From the sequence record OK254198.1: a DNA stretch of 64,000 nt; one strand, written 5' to 3'. Below, in pieces: positions 3,273-15,434 of this stretch. The first letter of the stretch is position 1, and every line of letters starts with the position of its first letter. The notes beneath the pieces were generated by a model. It saw only the letters and a program-made list of their open reading frames with translations. It was not told where the DNA came from and searched no databases. This stretch comes from Escherichia phage PSD2001. The position numbers were made by a program, and so were the translations under genes.

Positions 3273-3284
3273 TATTTATAAATA
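3273..3284. promoter_or_regulatory. palindromic bidirectional late promoter TATTTATAAATA
   Basis: The 12-mer is its own reverse complement and gives TATAAATA on both strands, ~24 nt before the gp51 ATG and ~18 nt before the trimmed gp26 ATG. Confidence 0.55.
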
Positions 3285-4061: not shown

Positions 4062-5227
4062 CAGTTAAATCTATGCAGCGTGAAGGCTTTCCTAATATCA
4101 GCATCCGCCTTTACGAAGATTATGATGCATGGCTTGAACACCGTTTTGTGGAACTAGCTGCCACCTTTACAACGTTAACCATGCGCGATTCCCTTTATGG
4201 AAGAAACGAGGGACTCTTGCAATTCTATGATACGAAAAACCTGCATACAAAAATGAATGGTGAACAGGTTATTCAGATTTCCGTTAAGAATGCCAACTCT
4301 GACCGAACCCAATCCAGAATATATGGAAGTAAACACTTTGCCGTTTCCGTGGATTCAAAGGGTGATAACATAATTACAATTCAGCTGGCTCCTATTCACG
4401 AAATTGAAGACTTGAAATTTAGTCGTATGTTTTACCCGAGCGTACAGGAAACATTAGTCGAAATGACTGGGGTAATTTATCAAGATAGACCATTACTTTC
4501 CCCACCAATAAACGGCATAAACGTTTATGCTCCTAACGTTCCATGGTGTGATTCGATGAACCAATATATGGAATTCATAAGGGAAGTTGGCCTGTCGGTA
4601 GAAACTGATAAATTTGTTTTTGTATGGGAAGATATTGATGGGATAAGTATCCAGGATTATGAATGGTTAACATCACAAGAGCCAATTAATTTTGTGGTGG
4701 GTGAACCTCGATTGGTTGGTCAATTTGTACAAAACCTCGAGACCCCATTGGCCTTCGATTTCGAATGGTTAACAAAGGCAAACCAACACACAAGAAAACC
4801 ATACGAAAACGCAACTGTGTATGCGCATTCATTCCTTGATAAGAACGCAACCAGAATAACTTTTGGGGAAGGTCAAAACAGTATTCTGGTATCTCGTTCC
4901 GGGGGCTATGCAGATTACACATACCGAAATGGTTTCGAGGAAGCTCAGCGATTAATAACCATGTCACAATATGATGGTTACGCACATTGCAAAACATACG
5001 GGAACTTTGAATTAACTCCGGGCGATAAGATAAATTTCTATGACCCGAAGAACCAATTCAAATATGATTTTTACGTAGACGAAGTTATTCATGAAGTGAG
5101 TAACAATACATCAATTACAAACCTCTATATGTTTACCAATGGTAAGCCTATCGAAGTTGAAGAACCACCGAAGGTTAAAAATGAACTTAAAACTGATTCT
5201 GCCGACGAAGAAAATACAGCTGGGTGA
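4058..5227 (+). CDS. 27: baseplate hub protein gp27
   Basis: 389 aa (T4 391), ATGA overlap with gene 51. Confidence 0.8.
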
Positions 5228-5699
5228 TAAAGAGATTCACGTTCCCAAGCTTGGACTCAAGCATCACAATCTGATTAAAAACGAACCTAACCCATACGCT
5301 GCATTAAGAAAGATTATGCAATCGATATTCCCTAATCTTACAGCAGCCGAATCCGACTTTGTATCTTTACATCTTCTGGAATTTAATGGTAAGCTAAAAG
5401 ACAAACGCGAGATTAACGGATTTACATATAAGCTGGATGATGTTTATATCTGTCAGCGCCTTGAATTCTCTTATCAAGGAAAGACATTTAAATTCCGCTC
5501 GAATAAGCCGTATGAAGAATTCGGACCAGTTGACAATCTCCTGGAGACCCTTTATCTCGGTGAAGATGTTCCAGACTTTCTGGATATGCCTGCTTTTGTT
5601 GCTAAGTGGGCAGACGATATCACAAGCACATTAGCAATCCCGGGTCCGAATGGTCCTGTTAAGGGGTTACTGAAAATAATGGAACTCCTAAATGAATAA
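5181..5699 (+). CDS. 28: baseplate distal hub protein gp28
   Basis: Track ORF 5139..5699 trimmed to ATG at 5181 preceded by AAGGT; ~172 aa (T4 177). Confidence 0.7.
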
Positions 5700-7437
5700 G
5701 AACTCCGAACAAACGAGCTTCAGACGCGGTGGACCTAATAAAAAGCTTATCGAAGAATTAGCACCACAAAGGAGGGCGGAAGCCCTCTCTGCTGAACAGA
5801 ATGATGAATTATCGAATCTGAATACAACTCTTACAAATACTCAGGCTGCAACCGAACTTGTATCGGAAGCTATTGAGGATAAGGGTAATCAGATTATAGA
5901 GAATATCCAAACCAATAATGGAGTCCTCCAGGATATCAGTGCTGGGGTCGAACTGACGGCCGAAGCCACCGAGAAGACTCAACAAGGGATTAAAAACCTC
6001 ACGGATATTCTCTCGGATAAGCTCGACAAACTCAGCGCAATGATAAGTGGTAAACTAGGCGTCACGTCTCCTGTGGCTGGTTCTGAAAGCCTTAAACCTG
6101 TGGAGGATGCACTACCAGAGCCTGAAGAGAATAAGCCCACGGCGAGCGTTCCAACGCTCATACCGCCTGAAGAACAAAAGCCCGACGCTGACTTCATTCC
6201 GGAACCAGAACAGCCAAAAACCGATGCAGAAGGCAAAGAGACTAATACCTGGTCACTTGGTGATAAGCTTGATACCCTTTCGAAGATAACCGAAAAAGGA
6301 TTTAAGGCATCGATTTCTGTAGCCGACCGAATCTCCGGAATGTTGTTCAAATATACAATTACAGCTGCAGCCGAAGCAGCCAAGCTTATTGGTGGATTAT
6401 TGTTGTTGGTATTCGGTATCGATGCAATACGAGTTTACTTCCAATATTTCATGAAGCAATTCGAAAAAGGATGGGCCGAATTTAATGATAAGTTCAAAGA
6501 ATGGGGCCCACTGCTTGAAGGACTAATGACTTGGGCTAAGAACGCGCAAGCGATGTTTAGTGAAAAGAATTGGTTGGGATTAGCTGAAGCTATTATCCGT
6601 GGGATGGTCAACTTAACGAAGAACATGGCTCAACTTCTTATGCTTGGTATTTCGAAACTGATTTCAGCTATCTTAAGCAAAATCCCTGGGATGGGCGATT
6701 TAGCAGATAATGTGGAAGCCTCAGCTTTGATGTCTTATCAGCAAAATACAGGGGCAACTCTGGATGATGAAGACCAAACCAAGATAGCAAAATATCATGA
6801 CAAACGTTCGGCTGAAGCAATGGAAGCTGCAGAGAAGATGAATAAGAAGTATAAGGATAAACCTGAACTAATTAATCAAGCCGAAAAATATGGTAACCTT
6901 ACCAAGGAACAAGCTGACCAGCTTCGCGCGGGTGGGATTGACACAAGCTTCAGAGACCTTCCGGAAGAAGAACGTCTGGACTATTTCAAGAAGCGTGACA
7001 AAGCACAGGCTGATATTATTCGTTTGACCCAAACTGCTGACAACCTAATGAAGCCAGACGCAACCGATAAAAAGAATGCGATGGAAATGAGAGCTAACAT
7101 TGAAAAACAATTAGCTGACCCAGCTATGGCAAAAGGTGGAGCTCCGAAAGACCTGAATATGCGCGCCCTGTTGGAAAAACTTGATAAGTCTCTCGAGAAG
7201 TTCAAAGACGAACCGAAAGTTAAACCGCCGGATGTTAAGACTTCTCCGGATGCACAACAAGCTGCAAAGGTTGACGAAGGCATGAAGGCCAAAGAAAATA
7301 AATACAAGGATGCACCAGCTCAGGCACAAATTAACACGGTCAATAATATTCAGAAGACTTCCAGGACGCAATACAATATGCCTCCTCAAAGTTCAACCCC
7401 TGCCCCTGGCATGAGACAGGCCACGAGAATTAACTAA
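5692..7437 (+). CDS. 29: baseplate hub / tail length determining protein gp29
   Basis: 581 aa, synteny, Pro/Glu-rich central linker. Confidence 0.8.
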   Translation: MNKNSEQTSFRRGGPNKKLIEELAPQRRAEALSAEQNDELSNLNTTLTNTQAATELVSEAIEDKGNQIIENIQTNNGVLQDISAGVELTAEATEKTQQGIKNLTDILSDKLDKLSAMISGKLGVTSPVAGSESLKPVEDALPEPEENKPTASVPTLIPPEEQKPDADFIPEPEQPKTDAEGKETNTWSLGDKLDTLSKITEKGFKASISVADRISGMLFKYTITAAAEAAKLIGGLLLLVFGIDAIRVYFQYFMKQFEKGWAEFNDKFKEWGPLLEGLMTWAKNAQAMFSEKNWLGLAEAIIRGMVNLTKNMAQLLMLGISKLISAILSKIPGMGDLADNVEASALMSYQQNTGATLDDEDQTKIAKYHDKRSAEAMEAAEKMNKKYKDKPELINQAEKYGNLTKEQADQLRAGGIDTSFRDLPEEERLDYFKKRDKAQADIIRLTQTADNLMKPDATDKKNAMEMRANIEKQLADPAMAKGGAPKDLNMRALLEKLDKSLEKFKDEPKVKPPDVKTSPDAQQAAKVDEGMKAKENKYKDAPAQAQINTVNNIQKTSRTQYNMPPQSSTPAPGMRQATRIN

Positions 7438-8540: not shown

Positions 8541-9499
8541 TGTTTACTTTACAAGAATTTCAAACACAAGCGATTAATATCGACTTACAAAGGAATAACC
8601 TTTTTAGTGTGGTCTTCGCGACCGCACCTTCCTCTAAATCTCAGAATCTTCTGGACCAGTTTGGTGGCGCATTATTCAGCAACCTTCCTGTTAACTCAGA
8701 TTGGTTCGGATTAACACAAGGTGACTTAACTCAAGGGATAACAACTCTTGTTACTGCCGGAACACAAAAGCTTATTCGTAAATCAGGGATAAGCAAATAT
8801 CTTATCGGGGCAATGAGTAACCGTGTTGTGCAATCATTATTAGGTGAATTTGAGGTTGGTACTTACCTGCTAGATTTCTTTAATATGGCTTATCCAACGG
8901 CTGGTCTATTAGTTCACTCTGTTAAGCTTCCGGATAACACATTGAACTACGAAATGGACCTTAACCATAATGCACCAAATATCAAGATAACAGGGAGAGA
9001 ATATTCTCCGTTGGTATTGAGCTTTAGAATGGATTCAGAGGCAGGGAACTTCAGAGCATTTAACGATTGGGTTAACTCTGTACAGGACCCAGTTACCCAG
9101 CTAAGGGCTTTGCCTGAAGACGTTGAAGCTGATATTCAGGTTAACCTGCACTCACGTAACGGATTACCGCATACGGTTGTTATGTTAACTGGTTGTGTTC
9201 CTGTAAGTGTATCAGCGCCTGAATTGAGTTATGAAGGGGATAATCAGATAGCTACATTTGATGTAACTTTTGCTTATCGCGTTATGTCAACGGGAGCAGT
9301 GGGAAGAGCTGCTGCACTGGAATGGTTGGAAGATAAGGTTATTAAGGGTGTATCTGGTATTAGTTCAGATAACAACTTGAACGCAGAAGTTGCCAAATTG
9401 AGCCGCTTGTCTGGTGCTCAATCTGGATTAACAAGTCTGTACAATACGTTCACTGGTTCTGGGAGAACAGTCTCTGGTGGAAGTCAACGTATATTATAA
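8540..9499 (+). CDS. 54: baseplate tail-tube initiator gp54
   Basis: 319 aa (T4 320), ATGA overlap with gene 48. Confidence 0.8.
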   Translation: MFTLQEFQTQAINIDLQRNNLFSVVFATAPSSKSQNLLDQFGGALFSNLPVNSDWFGLTQGDLTQGITTLVTAGTQKLIRKSGISKYLIGAMSNRVVQSLLGEFEVGTYLLDFFNMAYPTAGLLVHSVKLPDNTLNYEMDLNHNAPNIKITGREYSPLVLSFRMDSEAGNFRAFNDWVNSVQDPVTQLRALPEDVEADIQVNLHSRNGLPHTVVMLTGCVPVSVSAPELSYEGDNQIATFDVTFAYRVMSTGAVGRAAALEWLEDKVIKGVSGISSDNNLNAEVAKLSRLSGAQSGLTSLYNTFTGSGRTVSGGSQRIL

Positions 9500-9531
9500 A
9501 AAGAAAGGGACCCGAAGGTCCCTTTTTTATT
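9497..9531. terminator. bidirectional intrinsic terminator
   Basis: Hairpin GGGACC-CGAA-GGTCCC flanked by an A-run and a T-run, between convergent gene 54 and the minus-strand ORF. Confidence 0.7.
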
Positions 9532-9850
9532 TGCGGAATGAAATGAAACCTGCTGCAGTCATTACAACTTCTTTTTTAGCAAAGACTGTAATTGCAATTG
9601 GTGCTTCAGATTCAAGTTGCCCAGTTACTACACCATTAAAAATATTTTCTGTTTGTTCAGAATTTACAAAGTTTTCAACAGGGCGAAGGTCAAACTTCTT
9701 ATCTTCGCCAAACACGCGCCGTAGTTCATTACCCACCGCGCTGTCAAACTCTTCTGAAGCCGGGATAACATTCTCAACTACCAGTTCCTGACCATTAAAG
9801 CGAAAAGATGATTTCATTTTATTTTCCTCATGTGCAATTGATATGAACAT
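9527..9850 (-). CDS. hypothetical protein (alt.-1 position)
   Basis: 107 aa track ORF downstream of alt; likely start at internal MKSSFRF. Confidence 0.5.
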   Translation of the reverse strand: MFISIAHEENKMKSSFRFNGQELVVENVIPASEEFDSAVGNELRRVFGEDKKFDLRPVENFVNSEQTENIFNGVVTGQLESEAPIAITVFAKKEVVMTAAGFISFRK

Positions 9851-9880
9851 TATATCGCACTTCCTTGTGCTTGTAAACCC

Positions 9881-11941
9881 CTACGAAAGGAATTTAGGAG
9901 GAATAGCTTCCAAATTAATACAACTAGCAAGAATACCAAGACCTTGATTGACTTTCTTCGTTACCCCAGAGGATGCAAACGATGCAAAGTCAACAGATTC
10001 TGCTGGCTCTTCTGGTTCCTTGCCCTGATAAACGACAAGCTCACCAGTTTCCATCAACACATCACCATCATAGATAACTGCATTTTCATCCAGTTGGTCC
10101 GTAGTCTGGATATCAGCTTCCAGCATTTTGACGTTCGCGTTTCCTTGATACGAAGCATCAGTAATTTTGGTAATCTTAACTACAGTCCCACGAGGAAGAA
10201 TAACTTCCTGCTCGGATGGGTTGCTTGACAATTCCCCAGGAACAATTACGTTAATTAAGTCCGCCCCAGAAATTTTCCAACCAACATGCATCATTACGTG
10301 GTCGCGGCGTGCAGCCGGCATATCTGGTAAAACAATTTCGTCATCAGCCTGGAAAGATGTCCCATCACGATAGTCCTGATGAACTGCAGCCATAGCAACG
10401 TTCGCCACCCAGCCACCAAAGATAATCGGTTTAAACGACGTTGATACATAGTTCCTGAAATAAAATAATTTAGATTTCTTAATTTTATCAAATGTAGGAA
10501 CGTTTAAATATTGACCACGCCAAAGAGTTGTATTAGGCGGCAACTTATGTCCAATTTCAAAGGCCGAATCCAATTCCTTAATTGTTTCGACAACTCTGTC
10601 TAGATTTAGGAATTCAGCTTCTTCTTCATAATATTTACCCATCAAATAATTATTAATATCGGCATAGTTTGCTCCACAATAATCTGCAATTGCTTCTCGC
10701 TGGCCATAATGGAAACGGTTGTCAGTATACCCTGCTGTGAAATTAAGAGTATTTTCTGATGCTTCTTCGGCAAAGTCTTTAACTGCAACACGAATGGCGC
10801 TCGTGTATTCTTTTTCCCAGAGCGAGGCTGCATAAGTAGCTGCATCCAGGTTAGGAGGAGCATCATTCATTTTTCTTTCGATAAATGCAGCTTTGCGAAG
10901 GTTAAGAATCTCGGCACATGATTCGGCAAAAATCTGCATCTGCTTCATACTACCAACCGGAGCACGTTTAAGTTCACGATGCATACGGTTAAAAATTGGG
11001 TCAGAGTCTTCAACACGAATTTCTTCTTTCCAAACACCATTTGCTCGCATAGCCGTATCTGCTGCACGCATACGAGCCATAGTATTCGTTTCGGAAGGTC
11101 GAACAAAAATTTCCAGTTCTTCATAATCATCGATAAGTTCTGCCGTAGCCGGTCGACTAAACTTAGCAGCTTCTGCATCAATTTCGTCCCAGCCATCGGG
11201 CACGGAATCACTTGGAGCGTACTGGGCTTGTGCAATAGCTCGGCGACTGATTTTAGTTTTCTGGGCAACAGCAGCATCGGTCTTTTTGTTTGCTGCATCA
11301 ATCAGAACTTCGGCTGCGATTTCTTGTTTGGAGACTTGTGCGCCTGTATCTTTATTAGTGAATACATCGCCGACTTTAGTTTCAACTTTTTGATATTTCT
11401 CAGGGACCGGTGGCATACCATCAACCGAAAGCAGGTCAACACCCTTTTTGTACATAATTACATAAGCGTTCTTTTTACCGAGGCCAGAAGCATTCGGAAG
11501 AACATGATAACGCCCGCTGGTTTTCATTTGAATCAGTCGATTCATAATACGAATAACAGCTTGGTCTTGTCCTTTCATCTTTTTGGATGGGAAACGGAAC
11601 AAGACTACATCAGGTTTACCTAGTTTAATGCTTTCCCAGACTGTAACAAAAATCAGGTTAATTGCATCAAGAGGTTTTTCACCTAGACCACCCTTCAGAG
11701 GAACAGCATGGCCATGTGAAGTCCCGGAGAGCAGGAATACCTCGGCAATTGCATCACCACGTTTATATTGTTTAACTGTTTCTTTGCCCGTAAATTGCAT
11801 CAAACGAGCCATAAGAGAATTGGTCCCAGGAACACCGAATTGCCAAACCTGTGGGACCTTGTATTTTGGATTCATATTAATGACAGGATAACCGAAGGCT
11901 TCGATATATTTGTCAAAGAGTTCATTTAATTGTTCAGACAT
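9881..11941 (-). CDS. alt: Alt-type ADP-ribosyltransferase
   Basis: 686 aa (T4 Alt 682); C-terminal R-S-E core: LWRGQ, YVSTSF, SEQEVILPRGT; ATG confirmed. Confidence 0.85.
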   Translation of the reverse strand: MSEQLNELFDKYIEAFGYPVINMNPKYKVPQVWQFGVPGTNSLMARLMQFTGKETVKQYKRGDAIAEVFLLSGTSHGHAVPLKGGLGEKPLDAINLIFVTVWESIKLGKPDVVLFRFPSKKMKGQDQAVIRIMNRLIQMKTSGRYHVLPNASGLGKKNAYVIMYKKGVDLLSVDGMPPVPEKYQKVETKVGDVFTNKDTGAQVSKQEIAAEVLIDAANKKTDAAVAQKTKISRRAIAQAQYAPSDSVPDGWDEIDAEAAKFSRPATAELIDDYEELEIFVRPSETNTMARMRAADTAMRANGVWKEEIRVEDSDPIFNRMHRELKRAPVGSMKQMQIFAESCAEILNLRKAAFIERKMNDAPPNLDAATYAASLWEKEYTSAIRVAVKDFAEEASENTLNFTAGYTDNRFHYGQREAIADYCGANYADINNYLMGKYYEEEAEFLNLDRVVETIKELDSAFEIGHKLPPNTTLWRGQYLNVPTFDKIKKSKLFYFRNYVSTSFKPIIFGGWVANVAMAAVHQDYRDGTSFQADDEIVLPDMPAARRDHVMMHVGWKISGADLINVIVPGELSSNPSEQEVILPRGTVVKITKITDASYQGNANVKMLEADIQTTDQLDENAVIYDGDVLMETGELVVYQGKEPEEPAESVDFASFASSGVTKKVNQGLGILASCINLEAIPPKFLS

Positions 11942-11950
11942 TTTTAACCC

Positions 11951-13825
11951 TTAATTGAGAAGGTGTACAAGTTTTTCCATAGACAAATCATAAGAGATTC
12001 TGTCATATTTTTTCAAAAGCGAATTTGATTCGTCTATCTGGTCATTTTCTAAGATAGAGCATTCAACGAGAATGTATTTACCCATCGAACCCATCATGCC
12101 AGCTGTAGCACCATAGACTTTATCAATCTTAAGCATTGTTCCACGTGGAAGAATAACTTCGGTTTCAACGGACCAGTTTGCCAGGTCACCAGGAATAACT
12201 ACCTTGATATTTTCTGCACCTTTGATAATCATACCAATCTTGATTGTAGGTTTCGCCGAACCAGTTGCACTTTTAATAGTTGCATCGATTGCCCCATCAT
12301 CGATATCACTCGATAATGCATTTGGGTCAAGGTTCGCAGCGGTGTGGCCCATACGACCGAAAATATTTGGCGCCAGAGATGTACTCGCAAACATAGGAAG
12401 ATACATCGTTTTATTTTTGATGGAATTAATTGCCATATCGGTTGGCATGACTTGAGCACGGTAGATGATAGTTCCTTTTGGAAGCTTAACACCGTTTTCA
12501 AATACTTTATCCATATCGGAAATCATTTTGATTTCGCTTTCTTTTGCGTCAGCTTTCCCTAGCAGGAAATTATTGATTGCAGTATATTTTCCGCGAGTAT
12601 ACGCCTTAATTGCTTCGGCCTGGTCTTCAGTTATTTCAGGGTTGTCGGAGATATGAAATAATGGTTGGATGGCCTTGGTGTAAATTTCATCTGCAATAAT
12701 ACGAATAGCTTCTTTAGTCTTATCTTCGCGCGCCCAGGTTCCCACAATGGAGTCGTCAAGCAACATATCAGCAACTCTACGCAATGTATCAACAGGATTC
12801 TTTGAGGCTCGCAGGACGTTCGAAAACTCACTTATTTTGTGTTCCATGCCGACTTCTTTAAGAGCATTAAGCACATCCATAGCTACACGAGTTTTTGTCT
12901 TATCTTCACCGACATCGCCTTGCGCGACTAAATCAAAATAATCTGCATATTCATCACCTGCTCGGTCGATTACTTTTATCGAAGCTTTAGCTATCTGACT
13001 TTCTCTGGCATCATCTGTTGAATGCACTGCGCTGGTAGTCGAGAGCTTCGTATAAATCTCTTTATGTTCTGGCGAGAATTTAGCAAGCCCAGTTGGTTCG
13101 TTCCCCGAATACAACGCATTAATAGCCGCGCGTTTAGAAAACTTGGTTTTAACAACAACTGCCTGGTCTGTACGTTTTTCTTCAACCTTTGCAATGGATG
13201 CTGCAATAGCTTCATTTTTGGTAACAGTTTCACCGCTGGCTTTATCCACATAAACATCACCAACTTTCGATTCCACTTTTGTGTATAGCTCAGTGTTGAT
13301 GCCTGGAATTCCGGCGATAGATTCAATCGGTTTGGATTTACGATAAATCAATACGTAAGTATGTTTACCTGTGTATTGATACATATCATCCAGGACTTTG
13401 AATTGGCCACCCGCGCGAGCCATAATAAGTCGAGCAAGAACACGCTGAATGGTTCGTTCTTGCCCCTTCATTTTACGGGTCGGGAAGCGGAACATAATTG
13501 CATCCATTTTCATCAGTTTTACTTGTTCGTAAACTACATCAAAAATGGATTTAATTGCTCCAATCGGGTTATCACCAAGACCACCTTTAAGAATAGCTGG
13601 AGTACCGTTTGAATTTAATGACATCAAAATAACGTGTGCATACTTATCGCCAGTTTTGACCTGTTTAATAGCATCGCCTTCGGATGCGTAAGACACCATA
13701 CGAGCAATAAGATTATCATTCCCCGGGACCTGGATATTCCAAATCTGTGGAACTTTTGACTTTGAAAGGTTAATGGCCGGGATATTAGATTCCCCTTCAA
13801 AAACCTCTGACAATAATTCGGTCAT
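11951..13825 (-). CDS. second Alt-type ADP-ribosyltransferase (paralog)
   Basis: 624 aa; same N-terminal KVPQIW...VPG...LIARM pattern and R-S-E core (YRAQ, FASTSL, VETEVILPRGT); ATG confirmed. Confidence 0.8.
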   Translation of the reverse strand: MTELLSEVFEGESNIPAINLSKSKVPQIWNIQVPGNDNLIARMVSYASEGDAIKQVKTGDKYAHVILMSLNSNGTPAILKGGLGDNPIGAIKSIFDVVYEQVKLMKMDAIMFRFPTRKMKGQERTIQRVLARLIMARAGGQFKVLDDMYQYTGKHTYVLIYRKSKPIESIAGIPGINTELYTKVESKVGDVYVDKASGETVTKNEAIAASIAKVEEKRTDQAVVVKTKFSKRAAINALYSGNEPTGLAKFSPEHKEIYTKLSTTSAVHSTDDARESQIAKASIKVIDRAGDEYADYFDLVAQGDVGEDKTKTRVAMDVLNALKEVGMEHKISEFSNVLRASKNPVDTLRRVADMLLDDSIVGTWAREDKTKEAIRIIADEIYTKAIQPLFHISDNPEITEDQAEAIKAYTRGKYTAINNFLLGKADAKESEIKMISDMDKVFENGVKLPKGTIIYRAQVMPTDMAINSIKNKTMYLPMFASTSLAPNIFGRMGHTAANLDPNALSSDIDDGAIDATIKSATGSAKPTIKIGMIIKGAENIKVVIPGDLANWSVETEVILPRGTMLKIDKVYGATAGMMGSMGKYILVECSILENDQIDESNSLLKKYDRISYDLSMEKLVHLLN

Positions 13826-13850
13826 ATTGTTTTCCTTATAAAATATGATG

Positions 13851-13858
13851 TATTTATA
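13851..13858 (-). promoter_or_regulatory. late promoter TATAAATA for the alt pair
   Basis: Minus-strand TATAAATA ~25 nt upstream of the ATG at 13825. Confidence 0.5.
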
Positions 13859-13860
13859 CG

Positions 13861-13890
13861 AAAAAAGGGCCGAAGCCCTTTTGTTATTTT
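13861..13890 (-). terminator. intrinsic terminator after ligase
   Basis: Hairpin GGGC-cgaa-GCCC followed by a T-run on the minus strand. Confidence 0.6.
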
Positions 13891-15425
13891 AATCCAGTCT
13901 TTGACCAGTCGCCAAATACATCTTCGAATGTGTCTGCATGGTCTTTATCGAAACGGAACCCTTTGATAATCGGCAGGAACAATGCAACCGTATTATCTTT
14001 ACGAGTCTCGGAAGTCAACCAACCATTACATTCACAGTCAGCAATCATTCCAACCAATTCACCTTTACGAGCTTTAACCATTAAGGCTTCACGGTCCATT
14101 TCATGACGCTCATCAATCGGAATAGAAACCCATTTTTTGGTTTTCTTATCTTTAACTTGAGTTGTGTCTTTAAAACCAGAACCACAGTTATTTCTAATCT
14201 TACCACAAGAAGAACGAAGCACAACACCGCCAATCTTATTCGGGTCTTTATCGTGCTCGTAATATTCAATGATTTCCATTGCAATGTCAATTACTTCTTT
14301 GAACTTATACAGGTTCTTTGAGCGCTTGTTTTCCCAAATCGATGCCATGTTCTTAAGGATAATACCTTCAAGACCTTCATCCACATATTTCTTATAGATA
14401 ACCTTCGCTTCATCGAGATTGTTAACAACATGGTTTTCAATCAGAATCATGCGGTCGAAACCATGTAGCACCACGTTATCTGCAATCATCTTTTCCAGAA
14501 CAGCAAAACGCACATCATATTTCAACGGATTGAGAATCTTAACATCAGAATAGACTTCAATCAGTGGAACATAATCCCAAACCTGGAATTTCATGCAAGA
14601 AGCTTCTGTTGCAGAAATAGTTCCTTTTAATGATTTGTTTGCCAGACCATTTGAAAAGGTTCTTGATTCTGCGAATTCCGCGAATTCTTTTGCCTTACTA
14701 AGCTCAGGCATATCGTCAAAAAGGAAGCCCAAACCGTCATTCTGGGGAGCTACTTTCTGTTCATGGTATACTAACTCGCCGTCAATCAAAACGCCCTCAG
14801 GATGTCTCTCACGCGCTTCACGGGTAGCTTCAATCAATTCCTTTTTAAGGAGGTCAAGCTTGAGGTATTCGTTGCCAGCTCGGGATAACAATCGAACATC
14901 ATCCAACTCATCGCCACGAACTTCTGCAAAACACCGAGCGCCGTCGGCTTTCAATTGCGCAAAGGCCGGGAACTTAATGTTCTTGGCAATACCGGCTTCA
15001 TCATAGGAAGAAGCGAGCATCTGTGGTTGTTCAGGAATTAAACCTTTCCAAACCTTATTCGCAATTGATACGGATGCCCCGCATTCCAGGTCACGCATCA
15101 TCACACGGCGAAGAACTTCAACATCAGCCTTTTTACCATCTGCAATATAGCCAGATAATTCCTCGATTGCAGCATTACCTGTCAATTTGCGAGAGGCCAA
15201 TGTGAATTCGATAAAGTCAAGCATATCATCGATATTCAGCATACCAAAGCTTTGTGTCGTTGCCCCAGGTTTAGGCCATTTCTTAATATAGAACTGGATG
15301 CCTTTGGAATATGTCAAACGATACACGCGTTTAAGGGTTTCATTGTCAGAATACGATTCCAGGATAGCTTGTTTCTCTTTAGTGGAATCGGTTGCAGCAA
15401 TTTCATTTAAAATATCTAAAATCAT
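13884..15425 (-). CDS. 30: ATP-dependent DNA ligase gp30
   Basis: KADGARC adenylation motif; strong similarity to remembered T4 ligase; track start is GTG, trimmed to ATG MILDILNEIA. Confidence 0.9.
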   Translation of the reverse strand: MILDILNEIAATDSTKEKQAILESYSDNETLKRVYRLTYSKGIQFYIKKWPKPGATTQSFGMLNIDDMLDFIEFTLASRKLTGNAAIEELSGYIADGKKADVEVLRRVMMRDLECGASVSIANKVWKGLIPEQPQMLASSYDEAGIAKNIKFPAFAQLKADGARCFAEVRGDELDDVRLLSRAGNEYLKLDLLKKELIEATREARERHPEGVLIDGELVYHEQKVAPQNDGLGFLFDDMPELSKAKEFAEFAESRTFSNGLANKSLKGTISATEASCMKFQVWDYVPLIEVYSDVKILNPLKYDVRFAVLEKMIADNVVLHGFDRMILIENHVVNNLDEAKVIYKKYVDEGLEGIILKNMASIWENKRSKNLYKFKEVIDIAMEIIEYYEHDKDPNKIGGVVLRSSCGKIRNNCGSGFKDTTQVKDKKTKKWVSIPIDERHEMDREALMVKARKGELVGMIADCECNGWLTSETRKDNTVALFLPIIKGFRFDKDHADTFEDVFGDWSKTGLK

Positions 15426-15434
15426 AATCACCTC

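Follow-up and report, generated by a model that had tools for sequence, protein, structure and literature searches.

Introduction

What does a T-even phage gain from two alt genes? The question is raised by a stretch of 64,000 nucleotides (nt) from Escherichia phage PSD2001 (OK254198.1), referred to here in its entirety as the window, in which two adjacent genes, altA and altB, both appear to encode Alt-type ADP-ribosyltransferases (ARTs). An original prediction, made from the DNA alone, had described two open reading frames (ORFs) of 686 and 624 amino acids separated by 9 nt, and this is borne out by the ORF list and the spacer sequence; both are long ORFs with strong family matches, and chance is excluded. 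We are confident, short of certainty, that the pair is best explained as two old paralogs of T4 alt in a Gaprivervirus (SP18-like) genome, whose products would be made, packaged, and injected as proposed below for this locus. T-even phages commonly have their alt genes in tandem arrays, and the altA/altB pair is already known from Shigella phage SP18; it is the particular combination of Alt lineages in the window (IV plus III, as defined below) that is uncommon.

The two genes are arranged in tandem on the minus strand between gene 30 (DNA ligase) and the alt.-3 homolog and gene 54, on the same strand as gene 30, which is the canonical alt locus; altA is the ligase-proximal copy (Table 1). No further Alt-like locus was found in the window by tblastn.

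Architecture and catalytic core of AltA and AltB

Both proteins exceeded the Pfam cut-off of 23.4 bits for PF03496 (ADPrib_exo_Tox), with scores of 70 and 56.8 bits, and both matched PHROG 802 ("Alt-like RNA polymerase ADP-ribosyltransferase") from residue 1 (E values of 8e-225 and 3e-198), in agreement with the Alt-type N-terminal pattern that had been predicted for them. AltB reached the end of the PHROG profile, AltA stopped at profile position 618 of 674, and no NCBIfam model matched either protein. AltA consists of an N-terminal domain (N-domain; residues ~8 to 235), a helical middle region (residues 236 to 400), an ART domain (residues ~400 to 599), and a short C-terminal tail; AltB has the same layout plus a C-terminal tail of ~65 amino acids that resembles the tail of T4 Alt. 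Every motif string that had been quoted for an intact R-S-E core was found, and the catalytic Glu pair was present in both copies upon alignment. These motifs align with R478, S503-T-S505, and E574/E576 of T4 Alt, and the core Ser and both Glu residues (E554 and E556 in AltA) are invariant across 65 homologs. Judged from their sequences, both proteins have the full Alt architecture, comprising the N-domain, the helical middle, and a C3/VIP2-type R-S-ExE ART domain.

AlphaFold2 models based on a 65-sequence alignment had mean predicted local distance difference test values of 79 and 80, and the best structural match of these predicted folds was Vis, an arginine-specific ART. A sequence search of the PDB returned no Alt structure, the lone match being a weak one to VIP2. 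The R-S-E bacterial ADP-ribosylating toxins C3, VIP2, iota, and Vis share 15 to 24% identity with Alt, which differs from them in having a stretch of ~45 to 85 amino acids, variable by paralog, between the STS motif and the ExE-bearing strand and in adding phage-specific N-terminal and middle regions.

AltA and AltB were also expected to diverge over most of their length, and they do: pairwise identity is 33% over 646 amino acids and, by region, 43% in the N-domain, 12% in the middle, and 34% in the ART domain. The C-terminal tails are 17% identical, with no meaningful alignment. The loop that precedes the ExE motif reads ANWSVETE in AltA and SSNPSEQE in AltB. Putative ADP-ribosylating turn-turn (ARTT) loops were assigned by position, by analogy with C3-like ARTs, in which the corresponding loop contributes to substrate choice.

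A single late-promoter-like site for both genes

The late-promoter-like box TATAAATA, predicted to lie about 25 nt before the first ATG, was located at exactly that distance, and the intervening 25 nt contain an AAGGAA ribosome-binding site. It is the sole such box within positions 9400 to 14000, with none between altA and altB, and the 9-nt altA/altB spacer is too small to hold a promoter or a terminator; the altA stop codon and the spacer together read TAAGGG, which is Shine-Dalgarno-like. VR20, SP18, T4, and T2 have the same box ahead of their first alt gene, the Dhakavirus phages and RB49 have a variant, CATAAATA, in that place, and the box is absent ahead of the downstream alt copies in the compared arrays. 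Between gene 30 and altA is a GC-rich hairpin that is likely the terminator of the upstream early transcription unit. Comparable GC-rich hairpins lie ahead of the first alt gene of VR20, SP18, T4, T2, WG01, QL01, IME08, and RB49, and a conserved terminator upstream of alt has been reported (Nolan 2006, PMC1524935). By these features altA and altB share one late-promoter-like site, and the proposal of one late operon is consistent with the single TATAAATA box.

Selection and candidate protease sites

Comparison of altA with its SP18 counterpart revealed 54 synonymous and 6 non-synonymous differences, giving a ratio of non-synonymous to synonymous substitution rates (dN/dS) of 0.03. For altB, the dN/dS was 0.14 against SP18 and 0.07 against VR20; the ligase gene gave 0.06 for comparison. 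Such ratios indicate that both genes are under strong purifying selection.

In T4, gp21, a protease that cleaves after Glu in a short motif, removes a short N-terminal propeptide from Alt and also cuts the C terminus (PMC9026906). The catalytic Glu pair aside, conservation in 94% or more of the 65 homologs is seen for just two [LI]-x-E motifs, one ending at residue 7 and the other just past the ART domain (E599 in AltA, E619 in AltB, and E619 in T4 Alt). At the N-terminal motif, E is present in 100% of the homologs and L/I at P3 in 95%; at the C-terminal motif, the corresponding values are 98% and 94%. This pattern fits trimming by the prohead protease as in T4, and with an L/I-x-E motif conserved at both ends, packaging and two-sided trimming would be expected of AltA and AltB alike. 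The tail that follows the second motif is ~25 residues long in AltA compared with 67 in AltB; if trimming occurs at that motif, the difference in tail length would lie in the propeptide and not in the mature enzyme.

The same pair in Gaprivervirus and tandem alt arrays in other T-even phages

Shigella phage SP18 (Gaprivervirus sp18) has the pair in identical order, with the same 9-nt spacing and flanks; its record, from 2010, names the 624-amino-acid copy alta (YP_003934835) and the 686-amino-acid copy altb (YP_003934834). The DNA is 96.8% identical over 6 kb, AltA and AltB are 99% and 97% identical, respectively, and the differences from SP18 are at the strain level only. The region is also 96.6 to 97.6% identical in Escherichia phages 212 and P896, the best match being P896 (97.6%), and none of the listed records is identical. 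For most other Gaprivervirus phages (VR7, VR20, VR25, VR26, the TH series, and others), the match falls into two pieces, and what they lack is exactly the 624-amino-acid gene. By tblastn, AltA was found at an identity of at least 99% in 5 records and AltB at an identity of at least 95% in 30. The alt gene of all Gaprivervirus records is altB, and AltA, judged from its presence in 5 of about 30 related records, is an accessory cassette.

VR20 and the window have identical flanks, which run as far as the first gene's ribosome-binding site on one side and resume at the altB ATG on the other. The indel is one clean cassette, composed of the spacer, the altA ORF, and 9 nt, with boundaries at most 6 nt from the two start codons. 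Simple deletion was considered as the origin of the relatives without altA and was rejected: both junctions share a TAAGG microhomology, yet VR20 differs in the 6 nt before the ATG and is therefore not a direct deletion product of the arrangement in the window. As a separate observation, the 141-kb record of Escherichia phage DCP80 (PQ671644) has an intact altA and only a 426-nt fragment of altB, both adjoining rIIA and tail fiber genes in a non-canonical order; this record is probably misassembled or rearranged.

Outside Gaprivervirus, tandem copies recur. In Dhakavirus, IME08 has annotated alta and altb genes, and WG01 and QL01 have three tandem Alt-like genes each. In phage T2, alt (697 amino acids) is followed 3 nt later by a 685-amino-acid ORF labeled alt.-1, so that tandem full-length paralogs lie in one late unit; they belong to lineages I and II, compared with IV and III in the window. 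RB49 has alt and a stand-alone ART-domain ORF, which is a truncated second copy. The original prediction had held that T4 carries a single alt. This is correct for intact genes, of which T4 has one, but not for the locus as a whole, because the two frames of T4 alt.-1/alt.-2 (positions 6056 to 6441 of the T4 locus, L006) correspond to residues 1 to 56 and 55 to 116 of T2 Alt.-1 with 96 to 97% identity; by this alignment they are a frameshifted, truncated remnant of a second alt copy. The comparison shows that a two-copy alt locus is ancestral in Tequatrovirus.

Earlier comparative work had described T4 alt.-1/alt.-2, RB49 ORF183c, and 44RR ORF188c as paralogous alt duplications, with 44RR ORF187c a full-length duplicate (Nolan et al. 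2006, PMC1524935), and had noted Alt duplication in ZZ1, Ac42, JS98, and Bp7 (Jin et al. 2014, PMC4177764). The 1221 phage records that matched Alt were sampled twice at even spacing, 60 records each time, and 28 and 32 of these, respectively, had at least two separate matching places (totals, 1815 and 1839 places). The rarity of the pair that the original prediction implied is thus contradicted by SP18 alta/altb, by IME08, by the WG01 and QL01 triples, and by the T2 pair, and its premise that such a tandem pair is not standard in characterized T-even genomes has essentially fallen to T2, SP18, and the Dhakavirus phages.

Alt lineages and probable exchange of modules

The middle region and the ART domain together served to define lineages, by means of pairwise and per-region identities of the copies from Escherichia coli phages. 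By these identities, the copies sort into at least four old lineages. Lineage I contains T4 Alt, T2 Alt, WG01 copy 2, QL01 copy 1, and IME08 alta; lineage II contains T2 Alt.-1, WG01 copy 3, QL01 copy 3, and IME08 altb; lineage III contains AltB of the window, VR20 Alt, and QL01 copy 2; and lineage IV contains AltA of the window and WG01 copy 1. Identity between lineages is 9 to 21% in the middle and 34 to 42% in the ART domain, whereas within a lineage, across genera, it is 34 to 82% and 60 to 94%, respectively, the low end being T4 Alt against other lineage I members. The arrays read IV-I-II in WG01, I-III-II in QL01, I-II in both IME08 and T2, I-(II remnant) in T4, III in VR20, and IV-III in the window.

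The alignment against T4 Alt and other alt loci that had been called for gave 33 to 36% identity of AltA and AltB to T4 Alt and placed neither copy in the T4 lineage; lineage I was absent from the window by tblastn. The closest relative of AltA is WG01 copy 1 and that of AltB is QL01 copy 2, each at 64% identity. Lineage IV is rare: in a collection of 5.8 billion proteins, only two 90% clusters (SP18-like and WG01-like) were closer than 43% to AltA. WG01 copy 1 also has a short C-terminal end and is 54% identical to AltA over the aligned tail columns.

The N-domain groups by phage (genus) and not by lineage. Its identity is 63 to 70% among the three WG01 copies and 67 to 68% between T2 Alt and T2 Alt.-1, and within each Dhakavirus array the N-domains are homogenized, unlike those of the pair in the window, where the N-domain of AltA is 64 to 71% identical to Dhakavirus N-domains and 43% identical to that of AltB. 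The middle copy of QL01 (positions 4998 to 7043 of the QL01 locus, L007) has a Dhakavirus N-domain that is 94% identical to that of WG01 copy 3, together with a middle and an ART domain that are 82% and 76% identical to those of AltB (lineage III); WG01 copy 3 is itself 98% identical to the neighboring lineage II copy of QL01. These identities are evidence that QL01 copy 2 is chimeric, with recombination at the N-domain boundary. The N-domain pattern as a whole fits module exchange or gene conversion at that boundary, and it leans towards altA as an import into a background that had only AltB.

A tandem pair of the same orientation and architecture would also result from a local duplication that took place recently in this phage and then diverged rapidly, but each copy is ~64% identical to a relative in another genus compared with 31 to 33% to its neighbor, which already refutes such an origin, and WG01, QL01, IME08, and T2 combine the same lineages in other ways; we give this explanation practically no weight. 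Vertical descent, in which the ancestor of Gaprivervirus and Dhakavirus had lineages III and IV and most Gaprivervirus phages lost altA, has only slightly less than an even chance of being correct, the alternative being a recent import by the SP18 clade. The identities of AltA (64%) and AltB (middle, 82%; ART, 76%) to their Dhakavirus counterparts are within the range of the flanking orthologs (ligase, 68%; gp48, 80%; gp54 and Alt.-3, 86%), as descent would have it. On the other hand, the AltA N-domain is nearer to all Dhakavirus N-domains than to that of AltB, although co-resident copies elsewhere are homogenized; the cassette has clean boundaries beside start codons and occurs in a minority of the related records; and QL01 copy 2 demonstrates that the modules are mobile.

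The N-domain family

The Alt N-domain is ~230 amino acids long, and a 99%-identical cluster (P0001) is annotated PF26846. The phmmer matches of the AltA N-domain were almost solely the N termini of Alt-like proteins of 600 to 710 amino acids. A set of 1.84 billion proteins yielded 70 clusters of this family at 50% identity, which makes it a small one, and the domain is nearly always joined to an ART domain. When matches carrying other effectors were sought, nearly all were Alt-like, with a few proteins of odd length lacking a recognizable second domain. Four metagenomic proteins, P0176 (1142 amino acids), P0178 (541), P0174 (485), and P0177 (347), have an Alt-type N-domain at the N terminus followed by no Pfam-recognizable ART or other domain; they could be fragments, or the same N-terminal module could carry a different cargo in them. 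P0181 and P0182 were treated as spurious N-domain fusions, as they showed multiple weak stretches and only unrelated repeat and immunoglobulin-like domains.

Ahead of a long helix, the N-domain has an invariant L-K-(G)-G-L-G-x-x-P loop that resembles motif A of GNAT acyl-CoA N-acyltransferases, a resemblance only. Neither a Pfam search nor a search of PDB sequences with a 14-sequence profile gave a match at E values up to 10, and the N-domain was not assigned to GNAT, having neither sequence-level family membership nor motif A proper (Q/R-x-x-G-x-G/A).

Neighboring genes and other features

Downstream, altB is followed by the alt.-3 homolog (DUF5498), after which come baseplate genes 54 and 48 in convergent orientation. 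The Alt.-3 family matches begin at residue 12 of a 107-amino-acid ORF, and the second ATG (position 9817), preceded by a GAGGAAAATAAA ribosome-binding site, yields 96 amino acids, the size of T4 Alt.-3; the second ATG is probably the start. The product is 86% identical to that of WG01 and 59% identical to T4 Alt.-3. With its own T4-early-like promoter in the altB/alt.-3 spacer, alt.-3 may be expressed early by itself and also late by read-through. T4 can escape the CmdTAC defense system through C-terminal extensions of its Alt.-3 (PMC11618068). Elsewhere in the window, at positions 3273 to 3284 in the baseplate region, two overlapping TATAAATA boxes on opposite strands (a TATAAATA/TATTTATA palindrome) lie between divergent ORFs and are possibly divergent late promoters.

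Table 1. Features of the altA/altB locus (window coordinates)
Feature	Position	Strand	Details
DNA ligase gene 30	13884..15431		Upstream of altA; PF01068
GC-rich hairpin AAAAGGGC-TTCG-GCCCTTTT	13863..13882	-	Between gene 30 and altA; scan placed hairpin on + strand
T4-type late promoter box TATAAATA	13851..13858	-	25 nt to altA ATG at 13825
altA	11951..13825	-	624 aa; Alt lineage IV; ORF list and family matches
AltA candidate gp21 site L-S-E|V	13802..13813	-	N-terminal; after E7
AltA catalytic Arg motif IYRAQ (R456)	12452..12466	-	aa 454-458
AltA STS motif FASTSL (S481-T482-S483)	12374..12391	-	aa 479-484
AltA putative ARTT loop and E554-x-E556 (GDLANWSVETEVILPRG)	12140..12190	-	VETEVILPRG, aa 553-562
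AltA candidate gp21 site I-D-E|S	12026..12037	-	E599; directly past ART domain
Spacer GGGTTAAAA	11942..11950	-	9 nt; altA stop to altB ATG
altB	9881..11941	-	686 aa; Alt lineage III; ORF list and family matches
AltB candidate gp21 site L-N-E|L	11918..11929	-	N-terminal; after E7
AltB catalytic Arg motif LWRGQ (R475)	10511..10525	-	aa 473-477
AltB STS motif YVSTSF (S500-T501-S502)	10433..10450	-	aa 498-503
AltB putative ARTT loop and E577-x-E579 (GELSSNPSEQEVILPRG)	10187..10237	-	SEQEVILPRG, aa 576-585
AltB candidate gp21 site L-D-E|N	10082..10093	-	C-terminal; E619
AltB second C-terminal candidate L-M-E|T (E631)	10046..10057	-
T4-early-like promoter (G)TTTACA-17 nt-TATAAT	9849..9877	-	altB/alt.-3 spacer; 11/12 matches
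alt.-3 homolog (DUF5498)	9527..9817	-	96 aa from second ATG; last gene before convergent terminator
Terminator hairpin AAAGGGACC-TTCG-GGTCCCTTT and T-run	9504..9525	-	Between alt.-3 and convergent gene 54

Predicted function of the pair and its implications

T4 alt is a late gene (PMC9697503), and its product is a component of the prohead core, at about 40 copies per head, that is ejected with the DNA and ADP-ribosylates the alpha subunit of RNA polymerase and other host proteins (PMC9026906, PMC9503650, PMC5512222). AltA and AltB share with T4 Alt the locus, a late-promoter-like box following a hairpin, the order of N-domain, helical middle, and R-S-ExE ART domain, and an L/I-x-E motif at both ends; they differ from it in being only 33 to 36% identical, and AltA has no T4-type C-terminal tail. 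By analogy with T4, altA and altB would be transcribed together, late in infection, from the one TATAAATA promoter downstream of the gene 30 terminator, and both products would be built into the prohead core. Trimming by gp21 at the L/I-x-E sites would leave mature AltA of about residues 8 to 599 and mature AltB of about residues 8 to 619, tens of copies of which would stay in the head until they are ejected together with the DNA when the next cell is infected. There, they would use NAD+ to mono-ADP-ribosylate arginines of host proteins ahead of any phage gene expression, with the T4 targets (RNA polymerase alpha at Arg265, MazF, and others) serving as the model. The mature enzymes would differ mainly in the helical middle and in the active-site loops.

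Several points weigh against this account. The expression, packaging, cleavage, and enzyme activity of AltA and AltB are all extrapolated from T4 Alt, and so is RNA polymerase alpha as a target, since T4 Alt (lineage I) has closer relatives than either copy. Since the N-domains of AltA and the resident AltB share just 43% identity, AltA is not guaranteed efficient packaging in this capsid, and it lacks the long C-terminal tail of AltB and T4 Alt. Finally, the window contains 10 occurrences of TATAAATA where 4.7 are expected, so that the motif alone is weak evidence; its weight as a promoter comes from its conserved position and not from the motif itself.

Whether both copies are active, and on what, admits other answers. 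Second copies of alt do decay, as in T4, in the split gene of ZZ1 (PMC4177764), and in the truncated copy of RB49, and the missing C-terminal tail of AltA could be read as a sign of one copy decaying or inactive in the manner of T4 alt.-1/alt.-2. However, both ORFs are full length with an intact R/STS/ExE core, the dN/dS values are low (0.03 for altA and 0.07 to 0.14 for altB), and the short C-terminal end is common to WG01 copy 1, making it a lineage trait and not a truncation; decay is very improbable. Redundancy is a stronger contender, if still a doubtful one: both enzymes would modify the same targets, chiefly RNA polymerase alpha, and the second would provide an extra dose or a buffer against host variation. 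The two share the catalytic core and overall architecture, and most close relatives have AltB alone, so that AltA is dispensable. Yet the middle regions are 12% identical, the loops preceding ExE differ, and four lineages have been kept distinct across genera under purifying selection, which is unexpected for dosage copies. T4 ModA and ModB, which are adjacent paralogous R-S-E ARTs, have distinct substrates and provide a precedent for target divergence, although, unlike Alt, they act later in infection and are not injected (PMC9503650, PMC5512222). Given their different lineages, their dissimilar middle regions, and the differing pre-ExE loops, AltA and AltB probably do not have identical target sets, and different targets are plausible on this evidence.

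A broader proposal, which we offer tentatively and regard as having appreciably less than an even chance, is that the alt locus is a combinatorial array of injected effector cassettes, drawn from at least four middle-plus-ART lineages with one to three per phage, in which AltA and AltB hit different host proteins. The N-domain, possibly GNAT-like, may be kept matched to its own head and swapped or homogenized independently, as in the QL01 copy 2 chimera, and the targets are perhaps components of host defense or toxin-antitoxin systems, by analogy with T4 Alt and MazF. If this is true, the rare AltA cassette would be a host-range or counter-defense accessory.

As a discovery, the pair carries little weight, having been in GenBank under the names alta and altb since 2010, and alt duplication was noted in comparative papers of 2006 and 2014. 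A literature search on second or third Alt paralogs, "alt.-1," and a link between Alt and GNAT returned comparative notes only (PMC1524935, PMC4177764) and nothing functional. Very few phage proteins reach the cell ahead of phage transcription, and those of the Alt type are among them. Should the lineages differ in their targets, the alt array would amount to a variable first-strike toolkit, much as the internal-protein (IP) locus does, and the natural single-, double-, and triple-copy phages are convenient material for asking what the non-T4 Alt lineages modify.

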